Assembly (NCBI GenBank): GCA_035524095.1
Contig: DATKPK010000134.1
Coordinates: 24,515 to 88,514, forward strand
Source: Candidatus Binataceae bacterium
GTDB lineage: Bacteria > Desulfobacterota > Binatia > Binatales > Binataceae
Direction of reading: 5' to 3'
Length of the DNA: 64,000 nt
Part shown: positions 25,708-34,103 of the stretch, in pieces
Layout of the letters: the number at the start of each line of letters is the position of its first letter
Numbering within the stretch: position 1 is the stretch's first letter
The notes under the pieces: model-generated
Database searches by the model: none
What the model saw: only the letters and a program-made list of their open reading frames with translations
Told to the model about the DNA's origin: nothing
Program-made: the position numbers and the translations under genes

Positions 25708-26511
25708 TTACGATAGCTTCGCCCGCCGCAAGTCCGCGATTGCCCCAATCAATCGTGGCATCACCTCGCCCGTCGGCCCGCGCAAACTGATATCCGCGAG
25801 CGGCGTCAGCTCCGACTCGTAGAGATTCGCCTCGATCATCAAGCCCCCGCGCCGCTTGACGTCGATCGCAAAGCCCGCCGCTGGATAAACCGTCGCCGAC
25901 GTTCCCGCGACGATCACCAGGTCTGCGCGCCCCGCGTGCTCGATACATTGCGCCAGTACGTCACGCGGAATCGGTTCGCCGAACGCAACCGTGTCGCCCT
26001 TCACCAGTCCACCACATTCAGGACACTGCGGGGGCAACACTTCCAGCGAAATTTTCGCGGCGTCGAAACGCAGGCCGCATTCGATACACCGGATCAGCTT
26101 CCAGTTGCCGTGAATCTCCGCCAGTGACGATTGTCCGGCCTGCCGGTGCAAATCGTCGACGTTCTGAGTAATCAGAAACCGCAGTACGCCAAGCTCTTCC
26201 AACTCGGCGAACGCGTGATGGCCCGGGTTGGGCTGTGCAACCTTCAGCGGTCCCCACAACTCGTCATTCTGCCGCCTGATCCGATCTTCCCACGCCTTTT
26301 TGGGATCCTGAAGAAATATCTGATAACCGTTCATCGGCGGCTCGCCGTATTTGGTCCACAAGCCGCCGGGACCGCGAAACGGCGGAATCCCGCTCTCGAC
26401 CGACATCCCGGCCCCCGTTAGCGCGATCGCATATTGCGCCTCGAGGATTGCGCGCGCCGCCGCGATTATCTCCTGGTCTGTCGCTCTCGGCTCCGCTTGC
26501 GCTGCCATCAC
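25708..26511 (-). CDS. cobB: NAD-dependent protein deacylase (Sir2/CobB family)
   Basis: GAGMSVESGIPPFRG and QNVDDLH motifs, a catalytic HG, and a zinc ribbon CIECG...CPECGG. 267 aa. Confidence 0.85.
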   Translation of the reverse strand: MMAAQAEPRATDQEIIAAARAILEAQYAIALTGAGMSVESGIPPFRGPGGLWTKYGEPPMNGYQIFLQDPKKAWEDRIRRQNDELWGPLKVAQPNPGHHAFAELEELGVLRFLITQNVDDLHRQAGQSSLAEIHGNWKLIRCIECGLRFDAAKISLEVLPPQCPECGGLVKGDTVAFGEPIPRDVLAQCIEHAGRADLVIVAGTSATVYPAAGFAIDVKRRGGLMIEANLYESELTPLADISLRGPTGEVMPRLIGAIADLRRAKLS

Positions 26512-26601: not shown

Positions 26602-27429
26602 TCACTGCATAACTTCTTTGACGAATCCGCTGATCAATTCTCCAAGCTCATGCGGACGTTCGAGCGGCAAATGATGATGCGCCCCCTCGAGCACCTTCAG
26701 TTCCACCAGCTCATTCGACGCCGCAGCCTGCTCAGCCGCCTCCGCCATCATGATCCGGCTGAGGCCCGCCCTAATCAGCAGGGTCGGAATTTGCGCGGCG
26801 GCGATCGCCGCTTCGACATCCAGCCCGTCCCCGCCATAAAAGCTCTCACGATCGAATTTCAGGGTATAGCAGCCGTCATCCCTCCGACGCAGGCTCCTCC
26901 GCGCAATCTCCTCCACCACTTCTTGCGCGATTTCGCCATCTTTCGGCAACAGCCTAAAGCGCGCGACCGCCGTCTCAAGGTCCGGATAGTTCACCGTCGG
27001 CAGCGCCTTCAAGCGGTACAGAAAACGATTACGGCGTGGCGTCGAATTCACCGCGATATCGATCGCGATCGCTGCCCGCGCCATCCTCGGATATTCCTGC
27101 GTGAATGCTGCGACCGCGATCCCGCCCATGCTATGACCTGCGACGATCGGCCGCTCGATCCCAATTGTTTCGATCAGCCGCGCCAGGTCGTCCGCATGAT
27201 TCGCTGGACCGTACGCCGCCGGTCGCACCCATTCGCTATCACCATGCCCCCGCAGATCGATCGCGATCAGCCAGTACGCCGATGGCATCGACGCCGCCAT
27301 TCGCGCCCACCACCACGCGTTCGCCGTATTCCCGTGCAGCAGCAGAATCGTCGTGGCGCCATTCGGATTCCATTCCAGGCAATGCAGCCGCGGGCTGCCT
27401 TCGACGAACAGGCTGCGCGGCGCGCTCAT
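26602..27429 (-). CDS. Alpha/beta hydrolase (paralog 1)
   Basis: LLLHGNTANAWWW, DLRGHGDS and the nucleophile elbow GHSMGG. 275 aa. Confidence 0.8.
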   Translation of the reverse strand: MSAPRSLFVEGSPRLHCLEWNPNGATTILLLHGNTANAWWWARMAASMPSAYWLIAIDLRGHGDSEWVRPAAYGPANHADDLARLIETIGIERPIVAGHSMGGIAVAAFTQEYPRMARAAIAIDIAVNSTPRRNRFLYRLKALPTVNYPDLETAVARFRLLPKDGEIAQEVVEEIARRSLRRRDDGCYTLKFDRESFYGGDGLDVEAAIAAAQIPTLLIRAGLSRIMMAEAAEQAAASNELVELKVLEGAHHHLPLERPHELGELISGFVKEVMQ

Positions 27430-28241
27430 CCAAGCTCGTCAAGGAATTCGCGCAGCACCTTGACTAGTCCAGCAGGATTGTCCAGCGGCACGTGATGGTG
27501 CGAGTCGGGCACCGTCGCGACCCGTCCGTTCGGCACCTTGGAGATAATCTTGTCCGGCACCCACGGTTGGATCGCGCTGGTCCCCGCTCTGATATACAGC
27601 ATCGGGCACTGGATCTTCGGCAGGTAATCCCACACCGAAATCGGTTCGCGCAGCATCGTCCGCCGATCCATCTTATGCATCCAAGCGCCCTCACCGTCTT
27701 GCCGGAACGAATAGCGTGCGGTGTTCGCCAGGATTTCCGGCGACGCGATTGTATTGCTCGGGATCGTTTTGAAATTTGTGATCGCCTCTTCCAGCGTCTG
27801 GAAGCGCCGCCCCGGCTTCTCAGCGATCCCTCGCAGCATTTCGGTCGCATCCTTCGGATACGACGCCGGGCTATCAATCGCCACCGCCGCTCGCAATGTC
27901 TCGCTATGCTGCCCGGCGTACAGCATGACGTTATGCCCGCCCATCGAATGGCCCACTAAAACCGGCTCACCTAATCCCCATGCCCCGATTACCGCCGCCA
28001 GGTCTGCGACGTAATGGCGCGAGCCGTAGGCCCATTCGTCGAACCACGGACTATCCCCATGGCCGCGCTGGTCGAGCGCCAGCACATGACAGCGATCGGT
28101 TAATTCCGGCCCTACAAAGTCCCACCAGCGAGCATGCGCCGATCCGCCATGCACCAGCAGCATCGATGGCTTGCCTCTTCCGCCATAATCGACGGCGTTG
28201 AGCGGCTGGCCGTCAGCGCCCTTGAATGTAAGTGTTTCCAT
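27426..28241 (-). CDS. Alpha/beta hydrolase (paralog 2)
   Basis: LLVHGGSAHARWW, DQRGHGDS and GHSMGG. Its stop overlaps the start of paralog 1 by 4 bp (ATGA). Confidence 0.8.
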   Translation of the reverse strand: METLTFKGADGQPLNAVDYGGRGKPSMLLVHGGSAHARWWDFVGPELTDRCHVLALDQRGHGDSPWFDEWAYGSRHYVADLAAVIGAWGLGEPVLVGHSMGGHNVMLYAGQHSETLRAAVAIDSPASYPKDATEMLRGIAEKPGRRFQTLEEAITNFKTIPSNTIASPEILANTARYSFRQDGEGAWMHKMDRRTMLREPISVWDYLPKIQCPMLYIRAGTSAIQPWVPDKIISKVPNGRVATVPDSHHHVPLDNPAGLVKVLREFLDELG

Positions 28242-29208: not shown

Positions 29209-29928
29209 ATGACGACCATGCTCTCGAACTCCCAGAAATCCCCGATCCGCCGTGCACTAGCGTTCACAGGCTCTGTGACCGCCCTGACGTTACTCTTGAT
29301 GGCATCCGCCTGCCACAGCCAGTCCGCCCAGACCAACGCCTCACCCCTGCCGCCCGCTCAGCCAGTTGCCGCTGCCACTCCCGCACCGGCGCCGGCCGCG
29401 CCGCCATCTTCCGCCGAAGCGGCGACACCTTCGCATGAGCACATCCACGGTCTCGCTTCGGCGACCGTCATCACGATCCACGGCAAAGTCGTCGCGGTTG
29501 ATCGCCCGAAGAAGACCGTCACGCTCGAAGGCCCGAACGGTAAACTGGTCACCGTCCACGTCTATAATCATTACAATCTTGAACAGGCCAAGGTTGGCGA
29601 CCGCTTCGTCGCCAAGTTCTACGAAATCATCACCATCCTCAGGCAGAAGCCTGATACCTCAATTCCATCAGTCTCGGTCGATCAGGGCATCGTTACCGCC
29701 GAACCCGGACAGCCTGCCGGTGCCGCCTTCGGCCGCTCGATTCGCGTGGTCGCCACCATCGACGCAATTAATCACGCCGAGCGCACCGTTGTAATCAAAG
29801 GCCCCGACGGCGCCGAGGAGACCGTTAAGGTCAATCATCCCTTTAGCCTGAAGCACGTTAAGGTTGGAGACCAAATCGTTATGACTCTGACCAACGTCGT
29901 CGCCATCTCACTCAAGCCCGAGGCGTAA
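29209..29928 (+). CDS. Secreted protein with an Ala/Pro-rich linker and two tandem about-55-aa beta-domain repeats (CusF-like fold, no obvious metal ligands)
   Basis: Signal peptide ending ASAC. Low-complexity PAQPVAAATPAPAPAAPPSSAEAATP. Internal repeat VVAVDRPKKTVTLEGPNGKLVTVHV...KVGDRFV versus ATIDAINHAERTVVIKGPDGAEETVKV...KVGDQIV. Confidence 0.55.
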   Translation: MTTMLSNSQKSPIRRALAFTGSVTALTLLLMASACHSQSAQTNASPLPPAQPVAAATPAPAPAAPPSSAEAATPSHEHIHGLASATVITIHGKVVAVDRPKKTVTLEGPNGKLVTVHVYNHYNLEQAKVGDRFVAKFYEIITILRQKPDTSIPSVSVDQGIVTAEPGQPAGAAFGRSIRVVATIDAINHAERTVVIKGPDGAEETVKVNHPFSLKHVKVGDQIVMTLTNVVAISLKPEA

Positions 29929-30240
29929 GGCGCGAGGCTATCCTCGCGCTAACTGTCTCCGGCAGTCGCCTTCTGCGACGACTGCCGGATTCCCTCGGCT
30001 GATGGCTGACGAATCAACCGGGATCCATCAGCCGTACCCATCACTTAACGGACCGACCTCGCCTCGCCGCTGATAATTCCATTGGCCTAACAATATGGCG
30101 GATTTTATGCCGCCCAATTTTGCAACGAGTGCCGCTCTCTGCTACTCAATAGCTCCCGAAAGCAACCTAATTCACCAAGCATATTTACTGCTTATGGTTA
30201 GCCGCTACCGTCGGTTCACTCCGACATCGAGTCAAAACCT

Positions 30241-31542
30241 ATGCCGACACTCGCCGACCATTTCGCGGCCATGCTCAAAGATGCGACCCTTCATAACACT
30301 ACTCTCATCTTCGAGGGTGCTCGCCGTAACATCCTTAGTAATCTGGCAAAGGCCGCAAAGGATCCCGCCGCCCAAAACGTCCAACTGCCGGAGAATGCAA
30401 CTCCGGACGATGTCTTGAAGCAAATTGTGGACTCTCCGATCGATCCAGGCGTTATCGACTCGCTCGCGGAGGCCGTGGGCTTCTCTGAGTTAGCAGGCTT
30501 CGGCAAATACGAGACTGGCGATCGCGGATGGATCGGATGCCTCCTGAATTACTACAGATTTCTCCACGACAAAGCGGGCTTTCCTTTGCCGCCGGTGCCT
30601 GCCAACGGCAACTCTATCGAGGGTGTCACTAACTTAATCGCCGAGCCCGCCGATAGATCTGGAATTAAAATTGGGATCGTCGGCGATTGGGGCACTGGGG
30701 TTTGGGACGACGGCAAGAAGAATGTAGCCAAGAACGTGATCGATGCCATGCGGCAGCATCGGCCCGACTACGCGATTCATCTCGGTGACGTCTATTACTC
30801 AGGCGACGCCAAGCAGGAAATTAGTAATTTTCTTCAGCTTTGGCCCTTCACCAATCACCGCAGCTACGCTCTCAACTCCAATCACGAAATGTACAGCGGC
30901 GGCCACGGCTATTACGGTACGTTGCTGAAAGACCCTGAATTCCAGCATCAGCAAGCCGGCTACTTCGCTCTGACGAATGCCCAATGGCTGATCATCGGGC
31001 TCGACACCGCCTATTACTCTACCAGTCATCTCTATCAGGAAGGCGCTATCCGCGATCCGAACGATCCTTCGAGCATGGCCCAGGCTGATTGGCTCGCGCG
31101 AGTTGTTAGCGCCAACCCCGGCAAGCGCGTGATCATGATGACTCATCACGACGGCTTCGACGTCGACGGTGAGACACTCAAGGTCGCGTTCAAGACCCTC
31201 TACCAGCAGATCGCTTTGCTGTTGCAGGGCGTCAGCGAATGGTGGTGGTATTGGGGCCACGTCCATACCGCAATCGTCTATAGCCCTGTCTCGCCCTTCC
31301 ACAATTCGTTGCTTCACGCGCGCTGTGCCGGCCATGGCGCAGTCCCCTACATGCCGTTCACCAAGCGCCTCGGCAAAGAAGTTATCTGGACCGAATACGG
31401 CCTCGCCAACAACCCCAACGACACGGGCGTCGACCGAGGCCGCGCCCCCAACGGCTTCGCGATACTGACTCTGACTGGCCCCGATTTGAAGGAAGAGTTT
31501 TACGACGAGAACAATCGTCTGCAATGGACCGGCGATCGTTAG
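30241..31542 (+). CDS. Calcineurin-like metallophosphoesterase with about-130-aa N-terminal extension
   Basis: Motifs GIVGDWGTG, HLGDVYY, NSNHEMY, MMTHHDGF and GHVH match metallophos signatures. There is no signal peptide. It lies in a lower-GC (low-to-mid 50s %) segment. Confidence 0.8.
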   Translation: MPTLADHFAAMLKDATLHNTTLIFEGARRNILSNLAKAAKDPAAQNVQLPENATPDDVLKQIVDSPIDPGVIDSLAEAVGFSELAGFGKYETGDRGWIGCLLNYYRFLHDKAGFPLPPVPANGNSIEGVTNLIAEPADRSGIKIGIVGDWGTGVWDDGKKNVAKNVIDAMRQHRPDYAIHLGDVYYSGDAKQEISNFLQLWPFTNHRSYALNSNHEMYSGGHGYYGTLLKDPEFQHQQAGYFALTNAQWLIIGLDTAYYSTSHLYQEGAIRDPNDPSSMAQADWLARVVSANPGKRVIMMTHHDGFDVDGETLKVAFKTLYQQIALLLQGVSEWWWYWGHVHTAIVYSPVSPFHNSLLHARCAGHGAVPYMPFTKRLGKEVIWTEYGLANNPNDTGVDRGRAPNGFAILTLTGPDLKEEFYDENNRLQWTGDR

Positions 31543-31560
31543 CCACGGCAAGGAAATCCG

Positions 31561-32475
31561 ATGATCACTTCAGCTGACTCTCTCGCGTATGCTGTCACGG
31601 CCTCGATGCAGAATGGACTCGCCGCGGCCATAGCTGGCAATCTTCCGCTCATCATGCTGAATACTGCCGAAGGCAGCAGCCTGGCGCATGATCTCCGCTC
31701 CGGCTATCTCATTCCCCGCAGCATCTCAGTCGATTACACGCCCTTATTCGATATTCTCCATCTTTCAAGCTATGGCCAGCCGCAACTCAAGCTCGAAAAC
31801 GTGATCGCCACGATTATCGAGCCTCGCGGCCTACTCAAGGACATCTTCGCCACTAACAGCGATCCGCGCGGGATGCTCAGTCAGGTCCTGAGCTTTCTCA
31901 GCCAGCCGAACTTCGCTCCCCTGCTCGGGACCTTCGGCTCCTATCTCGAAGGCCAGTTCGGCATCGCGCTGTCGCTCGTCACCACGCTCAAGAATCTCGC
32001 CAGCCCGACCTTTCCGCGCGCGATCGCCGATGCCGTTCTCGCCTACTTCTTCAATGAAAACGGCTTCGTCACCGTAGACAATATCCAGTATATGCCGCCG
32101 ATGAACTTCAGTGGCACCGCCCAGACGTCAGCCGACCTGCAGCACGCCTTGGTTCCCAAAAGCGGCGAACGCTATATCCGAGATCTGATAACGGTCACGG
32201 TCGAGGCCGCCGGCGACGTCCAATACCAGTTACGCGACCGCTACCATCAAATGGCCGCGAAGCTGACCGTCCCCCAGCAGGGCGTCGCCATGCGATGGTG
32301 CAAGGGCTTCGCCGCGATGGCCGAGTCGGGCGTGCTCACCGCTGTCGAAGAGACACTGCTCGGCATCGGCCAATTCCGCACCAATCCGATAATTGCAGCC
32401 GCAGCCGGAACCTATGCTGGCGCGATCGCCCGCAAGGCTACTCAGCATGTATTCCTTAAAGAATTTGGCGTTTAG
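31561..32475 (+). CDS. Hypothetical protein (no recognisable motifs), co-operonic with the metallophosphoesterase
   Basis: 304-aa ORF starting 18 nt after the upstream stop, with SD AAGGAAA 6 nt before the ATG. Soluble, no TM. Lower GC like its partner. Confidence 0.55.
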   Translation: MITSADSLAYAVTASMQNGLAAAIAGNLPLIMLNTAEGSSLAHDLRSGYLIPRSISVDYTPLFDILHLSSYGQPQLKLENVIATIIEPRGLLKDIFATNSDPRGMLSQVLSFLSQPNFAPLLGTFGSYLEGQFGIALSLVTTLKNLASPTFPRAIADAVLAYFFNENGFVTVDNIQYMPPMNFSGTAQTSADLQHALVPKSGERYIRDLITVTVEAAGDVQYQLRDRYHQMAAKLTVPQQGVAMRWCKGFAAMAESGVLTAVEETLLGIGQFRTNPIIAAAAGTYAGAIARKATQHVFLKEFGV

Positions 32476-32537: not shown

Positions 32538-32975
32538 CTATTCCGCCGGCGCCCCCGGCGTCGGTGTCGCTGCCGGCGAAGCCCATGGTGGCGGAGGGAC
32601 TTGACCCTGTTGCTCCAATTGCTCGGCCTCGCTACGGAAGCGCGGCGGTACGAAATTCTGATCAAAACGCGCCTGCTGCTCCGGTGTCAGCACCGTCCGA
32701 ATCTGGATATATGCGTTCAGTAGAACTTTACGCCGTTGCCGCTGAAAGTTCCGTCGTAGCTGGCTGACATGCGCACGCGTATCTTCCATCACCTCGCCAA
32801 CCTGTTCCCGCTGGCTCGGTGTCAGATTCAACTCACGCGTCATCTTTTCCACCGGACCCTCGCCCGGCGGACGCAGCCATCCCAGCCGGTAAGCGGTAGT
32901 CGTGCCCGCGAATCCCAACGCGAACCCGGCCAGCAAAGCGGCGCATAGCAGGACGATTCCGTTCTTACCCAGCAA
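32538..32975 (-). CDS. Periplasmic LTXXQ-motif protein (Spy/CpxP/ZraP family)
   Basis: Signal anchor, then two LTXXQ motifs (LNLTPSQ, VLTPEQQ) and a Pro-rich tail. 145 aa. Confidence 0.6.
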   Translation of the reverse strand: MLGKNGIVLLCAALLAGFALGFAGTTTAYRLGWLRPPGEGPVEKMTRELNLTPSQREQVGEVMEDTRAHVSQLRRNFQRQRRKVLLNAYIQIRTVLTPEQQARFDQNFVPPRFRSEAEQLEQQGQVPPPPWASPAATPTPGAPAE

Positions 32976-33471
32976 GACCTTCGGATTGGACGGGGTTGTT
33001 ATCAGGCGCCAACGGCTCCTGTACTGAAGGATCAGTGCCGATTACATCCTGGCTGAAGATGCCCGCATCGGGCGTATAGCTGACTGGCTCAACCGCCGGA
33101 TCATCACCGGCAATCGCTTCCATCACGTCCTGACTTGCCGGCGCTGCAGCCCTCCAGGCCGCTGTCCCGCTGATGATCAACAGAATCGCCGCCGCAGCCA
33201 TTGCTCGCCACGGCGCCATCCCATTTCTTTGCGACGGCACGCGGCGCGCCGCCAACGGCCGCACCGCACTTCGCGCCGTTCCGGCCGGACGCGGCCGTGG
33301 CTCCGGTTCGCGCTCCGAATGGAGCACCGGCGCACTCAGCGCAAAGGTCCTGAACGACCTATCGCACTTCGCACACCTGCCCAGATGGGCACTGAAGGCC
33401 ACCCGCATCTCGGGCGTCAGCGTCCGGCACCAGAACGCGCCAAACTCCTTGCGCGCTTCAAAGCAATTCAT
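32965..33471 (-). CDS. Zinc-finger (HC2-type) anti-sigma factor
   Basis: N-terminal C..H...C..C pattern (CRTLTPEMRVAFSAHLGRCAKC), a central TM (AAAILLIISGTAAW) and a periplasmic tail. It overlaps the ECF sigma gene by 4 bp. Confidence 0.6.
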   Translation of the reverse strand: MNCFEARKEFGAFWCRTLTPEMRVAFSAHLGRCAKCDRSFRTFALSAPVLHSEREPEPRPRPAGTARSAVRPLAARRVPSQRNGMAPWRAMAAAAILLIISGTAAWRAAAPASQDVMEAIAGDDPAVEPVSYTPDAGIFSQDVIGTDPSVQEPLAPDNNPVQSEGLAG

Positions 33472-34103
33472 CTTGCCACCCGGCCCTTGTGCGACGAAAG
33501 AATCTTCTCGGCTTGTGCGCGCATCAACTGACGCGCACGAAATGCCCTTATCTTAACTTTGGCCACACTCCAGCCCATAATTTCTGCGATCTCGTTAACG
33601 CTCAGCTCCTCGGTCTCCTTCAAGACCATGACCATCCTGTCGTCCGGTTTGAGCGCGTCGAGTAGCCGGTGCGCCAAATCGTGCGCTTCACGCCTCTGCT
33701 CGGCTGCGTTGACTATATCTTCCGGTGTAGCTTGATTAACCAGTTGCGCCCAGTTCTGCTCCGCCGCACCGAAATCCCCAACCAAATCTTCTGGACGCCG
33801 TTGCCGCCGCCGCAATTCGTCGTAGCATACGTTTGCCGTTATCGCACGCAGCCATCCGCTGAACGGCATCTCGGCGCGATACGTCGCCAATCCGGTGAAG
33901 GCCCGCATCAGGCTTTCCTGCGCCAGGTCGCGCGCCATTTCACGATCGCTGAAAAACCGCTGGCACAGCCTCTCCACCTTCTCGCGATGGCGCGCAGTGA
34001 GTTCAGCGAAAGCGGCCGTCCGTCCGCCGAGGACTTCGGCTATCAGATCCTCGTCGGAATTAACGGCGCCTCTCCAGTTCCGTATTGCGGCGAGTGCAGC
34101 CAT
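33468..34103 (-). CDS. ECF (sigma-70 family group 4) RNA polymerase sigma factor
   Basis: Region 2 (DLAQESLMRAF) and region 4 HTH (LSVNEIAEIMGWSVAKVKIR). 211 aa. Confidence 0.85.
   Translation of the reverse strand: MAALAAIRNWRGAVNSDEDLIAEVLGGRTAAFAELTARHREKVERLCQRFFSDREMARDLAQESLMRAFTGLATYRAEMPFSGWLRAITANVCYDELRRRQRRPEDLVGDFGAAEQNWAQLVNQATPEDIVNAAEQRREAHDLAHRLLDALKPDDRMVMVLKETEELSVNEIAEIMGWSVAKVKIRAFRARQLMRAQAEKILSSHKGRVAR

Follow-up and report, generated by a model that had tools for sequence, protein, structure and literature searches.

Two adjacent genes in the 64,000-nucleotide stretch of DNA analysed here (the window), which comes from an uncultured soil bacterium of the Binataceae, encode a metallophosphoesterase (MPE) with an unusual N-terminal extension and a partner protein that belongs to no recognised family. 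They raise the question of whether they form one functional unit and, if so, of what kind and of what origin. The initial annotation took them for a compact, horizontally acquired accessory module, an enzyme with a partner of its own. The first part of that proposal, the functional unit, is considered below separately from the second, the foreign origin.

The physical layout is as first described: two ORFs separated by 18 nt, a Shine-Dalgarno sequence before the second gene, a noncoding stretch of about 310 bp before the pair and a convergent ECF-sigma module on the far side are all present (Table 1). The AAGGAA sequence lies 7 nt ahead of the partner ATG and, together with the short spacer, indicates a two-gene operon. 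On the upstream side, the stop codon of a 239-aa gene is followed directly by two strong stem-loops; the region 29926-30000 folds at -38.8 kcal/mol (z = -4.56), and none of 200 shuffled sequences folds as well. These stem-loops are likely to mark the transcript boundary between the pair and the upstream gene, and the promoter of the pair presumably sits in the 312-bp gap, in which neither a sigma-70-like site nor an Rfam match was found. The equivalent spacer at a syntenic locus in another Binataceae species (L008) is only about 140 bp long, and it is poorly conserved relative to the gap in the window. No paralogues of the pair occur elsewhere in the window.

Table 1. Features of the two-gene locus and its borders, in window coordinates.
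Feature	Position	Strand	Basis
Two strong stem-loops, directly 3' of the stop codon of the upstream 239-aa gene	29926..29990	+	RNA fold
Non-coding region 5' of the phosphoesterase gene, 312 bp	29929..30240	+	Sequence
Phosphoesterase (MPE) gene, 433 aa	30241..31542	+	ORF confirmed
Helical N-terminal region of the phosphoesterase, residues 1-130, specific to the MPE family	30241..30630	+	AF2 model, conservation
Catalytic domain of the phosphoesterase, residues ~139-433, plus stop codon	30655..31542	+	Metal-ligand motifs of purple acid phosphatase (PAP) type
Intercistronic spacer, 18 nt, with AAGGAA ribosome-binding site	31543..31560	+	Sequence
Partner gene, 304 aa	31561..32475	+	ORF confirmed
Variable N-terminal half of the partner, residues 1-124	31561..31932	+	Alignment identity
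Conserved core of the partner, residues 125-304, plus stop codon	31933..32475	+	Alignments, AF2
Convergent LTXXQ / anti-sigma / ECF sigma operon, 3' of the pair	32538..34103		

The phosphoesterase matches the Pfam Metallophos family (PF00149) over residues 142-342, with a score of 32.7 bits against a gathering score of 21.5, and matches no NCBIfam model. The calcineurin-like motifs noted earlier are present as GDWG (148-151), GDVYY (182-186), SNHE (213-216), THHD (301-304) and GHVH (339-342). Their key residues are invariant in 51 homologues, with G148, D149, G151, D183 and Y186 invariant across the MPE family, and the predicted ligand set comprises Asp, Asp, Tyr, Asn and three His. These five motif blocks carry the metal ligands on the superfamily fold and place the protein in the calcineurin-like superfamily. 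Within it, the seven-residue ligand pattern, the DxG form of motif I and the Tyr of GDxxY are shared with the purple acid phosphatases (pig and human ACP5 and the plant PAPs), which are also the closest structural neighbours; the glycerophosphodiesterase GpdQ and sphingomyelinase-like enzymes are among the structural neighbours as well. Identity to PAP structures is however only 12-18%, no PDB relative is detectable by sequence, and the signal peptide that would place the protein with the PAPs by location is absent. The family also differs from the PAPs in being paired with, or fused to, a helical partner. Judged from its motifs and its model, the enzyme is most likely a cytoplasmic, binuclear phosphoesterase of the PAP type.

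The extra N-terminal region of about 130 residues that had been pointed out falls outside the Pfam match and is helical in the AF2 model (helices at 4-17, 31-45, 55-64, 69-79 and 96-107; pTM 0.90 for the whole protein). It takes the place of the N-terminal domains of plant PAPs, and is kept in all family members, even those that have additional N-terminal domains. W97 is invariant and G86 and D94 are nearly so, while residues 1-130 as a whole are the fastest-diverging part of the enzyme. Neither protein of the pair contains a hydrophobic segment (the highest 19-residue Kyte-Doolittle means are 0.94 for the phosphoesterase and 1.13 for the partner), so that neither a transmembrane helix nor a signal peptide is apparent in either, in agreement with the earlier description.

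The partner was originally described as having no recognisable motif, and this is borne out: no family was matched in Pfam (E up to 0.1), NCBIfam, PADLOC or PHROG, no relative was found in the PDB, and no Pfam family is common to 63 diverse members of the partner family. It does not resolve into a housekeeping family, and both genes are lineage-restricted and conserved as a pair. The AF2 model is all helical (pLDDT 83, pTM 0.86), with pLDDT above 90 across two long C-terminal helices. Identity to distant Binatia relatives is 33-41% in the N-terminal half vs 61-63% in the C-terminal part, and the N-terminal half is missing or unalignable in many distant members. Conservation is all but complete in the final 65 residues (32278-32472), whose signature is W-x-G-F-x-x-M-A-E-S ... 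V-E ... F-Q-T-N-P-L-I-A-A-x-A-G-T-F-A-G-T-x-A-R-K-x-x-Q-H-x-F-L. A profile search detected 132 partner clusters among 1.84 billion representatives, most of which match residues 125-304; the metagenome scan was run with a trimmed C-terminal alignment. A further search with the C-terminal profile returned fragments only and no new architectures. Among species genomes the family is rare and patchy, occurring in 15 of 185,579. Lif is an all-helical protein of about 300 aa that is encoded beside the lipase it serves. The partner resembles Lif (PF03280) in size, in helical content and in its position beside an enzyme gene, but has neither a Pfam Lipase_chap match nor a membrane anchor. The partner is best read as a non-catalytic protein of a previously undescribed family.

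The proposal that the pair is compositionally foreign and horizontally acquired finds no support. The segment is lower in GC than its surroundings, as had been stated, but the dip is small (56.7%, the 9th percentile, against a window mean of 59.2% with a standard deviation of 1.6% for windows of the same size), and the surroundings are not in the mid-60s to 70s % as claimed. The lowest-GC stretch of the window lies elsewhere, at about 43-46.9 kb, and GC3 is ordinary, at 0.69 and 0.725 for the pair vs 0.64-0.72 in nine measured neighbours, which is at or just above their range. A dip of this size is no evidence for foreign origin. In L008 the pair occupies exactly the same site, with the same ten neighbours around it, and in a second group of loci ECF sigma genes lie at similar distances from the pair. 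Searches of plasmid and phage collections and of the viral sequences of IMG/VR gave no partner relatives. The base composition, GC3, window-wide GC distribution and synteny with L008 argue against a recent transfer, and the pair was probably inherited vertically in the Binataceae lineage. Neither a defence island nor a mobile element was found near the pair, and the neighbours in Binatia are metabolic, housekeeping, regulatory or pilus genes. Relative to L008, identity is 50% for the phosphoesterase and 73% for the partner, against 77-95% for most flanking genes and 68% for the anti-sigma gene.

The proposal of a functional unit fares better. An MPE gene lies directly upstream of the partner gene on the same strand, mostly with a short gap, in 10 of the 11 species genomes with a full-length partner; the exception (L001/L011) has the partner alone, with no MPE within 8 kb. 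The same order is found in metagenome contigs, and adjacency is retained between proteins 42-50% identical, across several distinct genomic settings. In 17 further MPE/partner cluster pairs the longest contigs are of equal size, which suggests that these pairs are also co-located. The two proteins are joined in a single natural polypeptide of 710 aa (P0242), in which residues 76-278 align to the partner (33% identity, E 2e-23) and residues 325-706 to the phosphoesterase of the window (35% identity, E 3e-66). Together with the varied hydrolase links described below, the conserved pairing and the fusion support the claim of an undescribed functional unit of enzyme and partner.

In other uncultured soil lineages, relatives of the partner are found beside enzymes of several other kinds. 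A Tle1-like gene lies directly downstream of the partner relative in six loci (L022, L032, L035, L037, L073, L110), and a Lipase_3 gene lies downstream in four more (L098, L104, L106, L111). A patatin (L021), a PLDc_2 protein (L100) and a second, unrelated MPE family (L020, L108, L063, L065) also occur beside partner relatives, and phospholipase C is encoded near at least one. CHAT proteins adjoin relatives in L020, L039, L063 and L065, a TIR protein does so in L034, and TPR-S, SLATT and M15 neighbours occur as well. In another natural fusion (P0280), the N-terminal partner domain is followed by peptidoglycan hydrolases of PG_binding, M23 and SLT composition that have no signal peptide. Many loci in the census have only metabolic neighbours or none, and the association frequencies are rough, because the ORF caller was a crude greedy one, the metagenome contigs were short and partly redundant, and at least one recurrent neighbour was spurious. 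The one concerned, a 517-aa upstream gene that has no Pfam or PDB match and reads as a spurious antisense ORF, was discarded. The census supports the view that the linked hydrolases are varied and typical of toxin or defence effectors.

Given the adjacency and fusion of partner relatives to other hydrolases, the two genes probably encode a single bipartite enzyme module of a novel type. The partner is best read as its constant, non-catalytic subunit, to which different hydrolase effectors may be coupled in turn. It is a more tentative suggestion, to which somewhat less than even confidence is attached, that the two genes encode a partner-controlled hydrolase module of the conflict type, acting in defence or programmed self-damage. 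In such a module the variable N-terminal half of the partner would bind the cognate enzyme, here via the helical N-terminal region of the phosphoesterase. The near-invariant C-terminal helical pair would contact a target shared by every version, be it the membrane or a conserved component of the cell. The partner could thereby govern the site or timing of a hydrolase that works within the producer cell and may be harmful, and the likely substrate would be a nucleotide or the head group of a membrane lipid, attacked at a phosphoester or phosphodiester bond. The physical complex and its interface, the docking to a membrane or other target, the role of the partner as regulator, targeting subunit or adaptor, the substrate and the role in conflict are all putative.

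Signs of conflict-type evolution may be seen in the fast divergence of the MPE, in the fast N-terminal parts of both proteins and in a TIR fusion of the MPE family that adjoins a SLATT gene. The lack of a conserved gene for a secreted immunity-like protein next to the pair points the same way. The arrangement also resembles conflict systems with a constant component (the Lamassu LmuA variants, CBASS effectors and TPR-S/CHAT/EAD systems), in which a conserved module is combined with lipase, phosphoesterase, TIR, CHAT or other hydrolase effectors. TPR-S/CHAT/EAD systems have been described previously, and calcineurin-like phosphoesterases are among the effector domains of such modular systems (eLife 2020 e52696, eLife 2021 e70394). 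The TPR-S, CHAT, TIR and SLATT genes beside partner relatives extend the likeness. Unlike these systems, the pair lacks a recognisable sensor enzyme such as an NTPase or a cyclase, and in Binatia it is vertically inherited and never lies in a recognisable defence island. No PADLOC-DB 2.0 model matches the window proteins, distant members of the partner family, the P0242 fusion or either of the two MPE types, which also counts against the conflict reading, and the stable synteny in at least one species pair fits an ordinary physiological role as well.

The strongest competitor, which is nonetheless rather unlikely, is such an ordinary role: the enzyme would be an intracellular phospholipase-C-like enzyme or phosphatase of membrane-lipid or phosphate metabolism, analogous to PlcP, which strips phospholipid head groups under phosphorus limitation, and the partner, a cofactor that binds lipids or membranes, would supply lipid hydrolases of all kinds with their substrate. 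PlcP is likewise an intracellular metallophosphoesterase, and it acts on membrane phospholipids in lipid remodelling (PMC4796936). Most of the enzymes linked to the partner family act on lipids (Tle1-like, Lipase_3, patatin, PLD-like and a nearby phospholipase C), and a role in lipid metabolism without conflict would explain them equally well. The vertical inheritance and synteny of the pair, the GpdQ and sphingomyelinase-like structural neighbours of the enzyme and a weak Phasin_2 match in a single partner-family member (E 6.6e-4) are in keeping with this role. Lipid-related genes also recur by Binatia pairs, with Lipase_3 and CDP-OH_P_transf in L004, Lipase_GDSL_2 in L028, MMPL and PLDc_2 in L029 and two alpha/beta hydrolases in the window itself, but this argument is weak because lipid genes abound in Binatia genomes in any case. 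A lipid role leaves unexplained why the partner domain is fused to peptidoglycan hydrolases (M23 and SLT), why the relatives have CHAT, TIR, TPR-S, SLATT and M15 neighbours and why the enzyme has diverged so much faster than the genes that flank it. General lipid remodelling would, moreover, call for a family much less rare and patchy than this one.

It is less probable still that the enzyme is an inter-bacterial effector, secreted as cargo by a contractile or some other system, with the partner as a new cytoplasmic adaptor or loading domain in the manner of DUF4123. Type VI secretion (T6SS) adaptors of the DUF4123 family (Tap-1/Tec/Tla) are, like the partner, non-catalytic cytoplasmic proteins of about 300 aa with a conserved and a variable part, and they adjoin lipase effector genes, as distant relatives of the partner do. 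The Tle1-like and class-3 lipases directly downstream of those relatives belong to classic T6SS lipase effector families, and DUF4123 adaptors for Tle1 are on record. The conserved C-terminus and variable N-terminus would suit one machine with many cargoes, and the peptidoglycan hydrolases of P0280 would need export in order to act. Against this, the partner (E up to 0.1) and 63 family members (E up to 1) give no match to the DUF4123 profile, the partner matches no other adaptor family, and it is also found fused N-terminally to an enzyme. VgrG, Hcp, PAAR and eCIS genes are all absent from the 6-10 kb around the pair, both in the window and at the annotated Binatia loci, and the sole PAAR-like link is a DUF4280 gene 2 kb upstream at one locus (L022). 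Conserved immunity-like genes, whether for secreted or periplasmic proteins, are lacking next to the pair, and none follows the Tle1-like gene of L037.

That the pair consists of a toxic phosphoesterase and a specific neutralising partner, as in toxin-immunity or toxin-antitoxin systems, is very unlikely. The tight operon of conserved order, the fast evolution of the enzyme and the lack of any other candidate protective gene speak for such a pair. A single partner family that associates with unrelated folds (metallophosphoesterases, alpha/beta-hydrolase lipases, patatin and PLD) is however unlike a specific inhibitor, the most conserved part of the partner is identical across versions with different enzymes, and the partner is fused in cis to enzymes in P0242 and P0280. 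The fusions, and the range of enzymes with which the partner is associated, lead to the rejection of this explanation, and equally of the highly improbable one that two unrelated genes are neighbours by chance, which adjacency at 42-50% identity in several neighbourhoods and the P0242 fusion contradict.

To return to the partner-controlled conflict module, the 304-aa protein, founder of an undescribed family for which no structural relatives were detected, may, on an equally tentative reading, be the constant hub around which two-part conflict modules of a new class are built in the uncultured soil phyla Binatota and Methylomirabilota/Rokubacteria. It would hold, target or trigger interchangeable envelope- or nucleotide-directed hydrolases, for anti-phage defence or effector delivery, and would do so without an NTPase or other known sensor domain, which would be a new mechanism for controlling toxic effectors. 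With its two genes, a fusion that occurs in nature and well-marked invariant residues, the pair is precise and open to testing. If many hydrolases do share the partner as their control or targeting subunit, it would represent a new protein family, probably with a new fold, and a new wiring of systems that combine a constant module with swappable effectors. The phosphoesterase would then belong to a cytoplasmic, partner-dependent branch of PAP-like enzymes, which are otherwise regarded as secreted phosphatases, and all examples would come from phyla known only from metagenomes, in which the biology of conflict and of the cell envelope is almost blank.

The metallophosphoesterase (MPE) gene and the gene for its partner are separated by an 18-nt spacer, with AAGGAA 7 bases 5' of the partner ATG, and are preceded by a gap of 312 bp. 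Two strong stem-loops (-38.8 kcal/mol, z = -4.56) open this gap directly 3' of the stop codon of the gene for a 239-aa protein, and the pair thus looks like a transcription unit of its own; searches of the gap yielded neither a sigma-70-like promoter nor an Rfam element. Eleven species genomes encode a full-length partner, and in 10 of them the gene directly preceding it in the same orientation encodes an MPE of this family. The exception (L011/L001, contig_6691) encodes a full-length, 50% identical partner at L001:8001-8936, with no phosphoesterase within 8 kb. Downstream of this partner lie a 144-aa gene that lacks Pfam domains and then an alpha/beta hydrolase gene.

For 17 further pairs of MPE and partner clusters, the longest contigs are equally long for both members. 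The 710-aa protein P0242 is a natural fusion, in which residues 76-278 align with partner residues 98-304 (33% identity, E 2e-23) and residues 325-706 with MPE residues 30-429 (35% identity, E 3e-66). Adjacency maintained across differing neighbourhoods, together with this fusion, provides strong evidence for a functional link; a physical link is probable, in what would be an MPE-partner complex. The initial annotation had described two closely spaced ORFs with a Shine-Dalgarno sequence, an upstream gap and a convergent ECF sigma module, all of which are present, and its proposal that a compact enzyme and an uncharacterized partner form an undescribed two-gene system is supported by the conserved adjacency and the fusion.

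MPE matches the Pfam Metallophos family above threshold, and 51 aligned homologues show full or almost full conservation of its ligand residues (in GDWG, GDVYY, SNHE, THHD and GHVH). This motif set is that of the purple acid phosphatases, which MPE resembles in the replacement of DxH by DxG and in the tyrosine ligand. AF2 modelled MPE with confidence (pLDDT 87, pTM 0.90), and no PDB relative was found by sequence. Residues 1-130 are helical, form part of the family core and are present in all relatives; W97 is invariant there, and G86 and D94 are almost so. Neither a signal peptide nor a TM segment was found, and MPE adds a new and divergent enzyme, cytoplasmic in location, to a known superfamily.

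The wider MPE family comprises 3199 matches, some with added N-terminal domains. In P0160, a TIR domain is fused N-terminally to a phosphoesterase domain that may be inactive, given its altered motifs II (GGVYY, in which the bridging Asp is gone) and III (NSCHE); its gene (L025:6001-8058) is divergent from a SLATT_3/DUF4231 gene. Two further, unassigned N-terminal domain types, of about 230-300 aa each, are carried by P0152, P0173, P0186 and P0202 and by P0187 and P0193. One contains the motif W-W-L-V-I-L-D...S-H-E-L-L-E-M-L-A-D-P and the other S-P-W-S-H-C-F-L-L, and the representatives scanned (P0152 and P0193) have no significant Pfam match. The gene for P0181, a family member with an extra N-terminal domain that is likewise unassigned, lies near an eCIS_core gene.

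The partner lacks Pfam, NCBIfam, PADLOC and meaningful PHROG matches, as well as PDB relatives by profile, and AF2 predicts an all-helical structure for it with confidence (pLDDT 83, pTM 0.86). No Pfam family is common to 63 diverse relatives; a weak Phasin_2 match (E 6.6e-4) in one member of the family alignment may reflect only amphipathic helices. The family that the partner represents is undescribed, has no structural relative that could be detected and is rare, with 83 clusters in a set of 5.8 billion proteins, 132 clusters among 1.84 billion representatives, and occurrences in 15 of 185,579 species genomes. In the species-genome search it was found in Binataceae and 'delta proteobacterium' MAGs and in a few Rokubacteria and Methylomirabilota; an identical protein is on record from a Candidatus Binataceae MAG. 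All subfamilies show striking conservation of the last 65 residues, and the N-terminal half is variable.

Ten genes are collinear between the window and L008, a locus from another Binataceae species: alpha/beta hydrolase, TPR protein, 239-aa protein, MPE, partner, LTXXQ protein, anti-sigma factor, ECF sigma factor, NTP-transferase and XdhC. Identity is 77-95% for most flanking proteins (anti-sigma factor, 68%), 73% for the partner and only 50% for MPE (window 30241-31542 vs L008:2340-3611). MPE evolves unusually fast, and divergence is fastest in its first 130 residues and in the partner's N-terminal half. In a second locus group (L006, L017, L018 and L019; partly L010 and L013), ECF sigma genes recur with comparable spacing, about 2.6 kb away on the downstream side of the pair and about 4.3 kb away on its upstream side. 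Within 10 kb on either side of the window pair are glycosyltransferase, GST, SIR2, hydrolase, regulator, peroxiredoxin and Tad-pilus genes, and no defence island, secretion-system cluster or mobile-element gene was found there. The SIR2-family gene, presumably encoding a housekeeping deacetylase, adjoins two tandem alpha/beta-hydrolase genes (26602-28241); the pilus set (two T2SSF, a T2SSE ATPase and a CbiA/CpaE-like ATPase) lies downstream of the pair, at a distance of about 6 kb. Neighbours at other Binatia pair loci are likewise metabolic, and no partner relatives were found in plasmid, phage or IMG/VR collections. Given this synteny, the missing mobile hits and the metabolic neighbourhoods, the pair is a lineage-restricted accessory unit that is vertically inherited.

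Composition had led the initial annotation to propose horizontally acquired DNA between flanks of mid-60s/70s % GC, and this part of it fails. The window mean is 59.2%; the MPE/partner stretch, at 56.7%, lies in the 9th percentile among equal-sized windows, and the GC3 values of its genes (0.69 and 0.725) are like those of neighbouring genes (0.64-0.72). The dip is real and small, and is no evidence for foreign DNA. The lowest-GC part of the window is at about 42900-46900 (about 55% over 2.5-kb windows).

Distant partner relatives lie beside a variety of enzymes (see table). In a rough census, for which ORFs were called crudely on contigs that were short and in part redundant, Pfam-supported neighbours are overwhelmingly toxin/effector-type hydrolases, mostly lipid-directed; one apparent recurrent neighbour was an artefact. 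In L022, a DUF4280 (PAAR-like) gene lies upstream and a CAP12-type TIR gene downstream. In L037, no signal-peptide immunity candidate follows the Tle1-like gene; a short ORF directly 3' of it (L037:3856-4416) resembles the N-terminal part of a class-3 lipase and may be a decayed second lipase.

Features of the window and enzymes encoded beside, or fused to, distant partner relatives
Feature	Location	Strand	Remarks
MPE ORF	30241..31542	same as partner	433 aa
Partner ORF	31561..32475	same as MPE	304 aa
LTXXQ / anti-sigma / ECF sigma operon	32538-34103	-	convergent, abuts pair; conserved in L008
Tad/Flp-type pilus gene set	about 38377-42500 (L112:16817-20915)	-	
SIR2-family gene	about 25708-26508 (L112:4148-4948)	-	266 aa
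Second, unrelated Metallophos family + CHAT + TPR-S	L020		trio rearranged in L063, L065
Second, unrelated Metallophos family	L108		directly downstream of partner relative
Patatin	L021		
Tle1-like lipase	L022, L032, L035, L037, L073, L110		directly downstream
Class-3 lipase	L098, L104, L106, L111		
PLD-like protein	L100		M15 peptidase upstream
TIR protein	L034		
CHAT-HEAT protein	L039		
PG_binding + M23 + SLT	P0280		fused to partner domain

The biological role of the pair, like the substrate of MPE, is something that we infer. Tentatively favoured is a conflict-type effector module that would act inside the cell under the partner's control, since the pair has neither export machinery nor an immunity gene, MPE evolves fast, relatives lie beside CHAT, TIR, TPR-S and SLATT genes, and calcineurin-like phosphoesterases are already recognised effector domains in conflict-type systems. 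The bias of the associated enzymes towards lipids, the lipid genes close to several Binatia pairs and the PlcP precedent would instead fit a physiological lipid or phosphate role with the partner as a lipid-binding cofactor, which we consider unlikely. Less probable still is a secreted effector with a new kind of adaptor, to which the links of partner relatives with Tle1 and class-3 lipases, the one PAAR-like neighbour and a peptidoglycan hydrolase fusion without a signal peptide point. A toxin-immunity pair is very improbable, because enzyme folds so unrelated are beyond specific neutralisation by one protective protein and the partner is fused in cis to two of the enzyme types. Chance adjacency is scarcely credible beside the conserved pairing.

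Within the favoured effector module, the partner behaves as the component that stays constant, and the enzyme as the one that varies. The near-invariant C-terminal helices of the partner suggest contact with a shared target, which may be the membrane or some conserved component of the cell. Its N-terminal half is variable, diverges in parallel with the MPE N-terminal region and would be the likely cargo-binding side. Combining a constant module with swappable hydrolases is an established design principle, for which new parts are used here.
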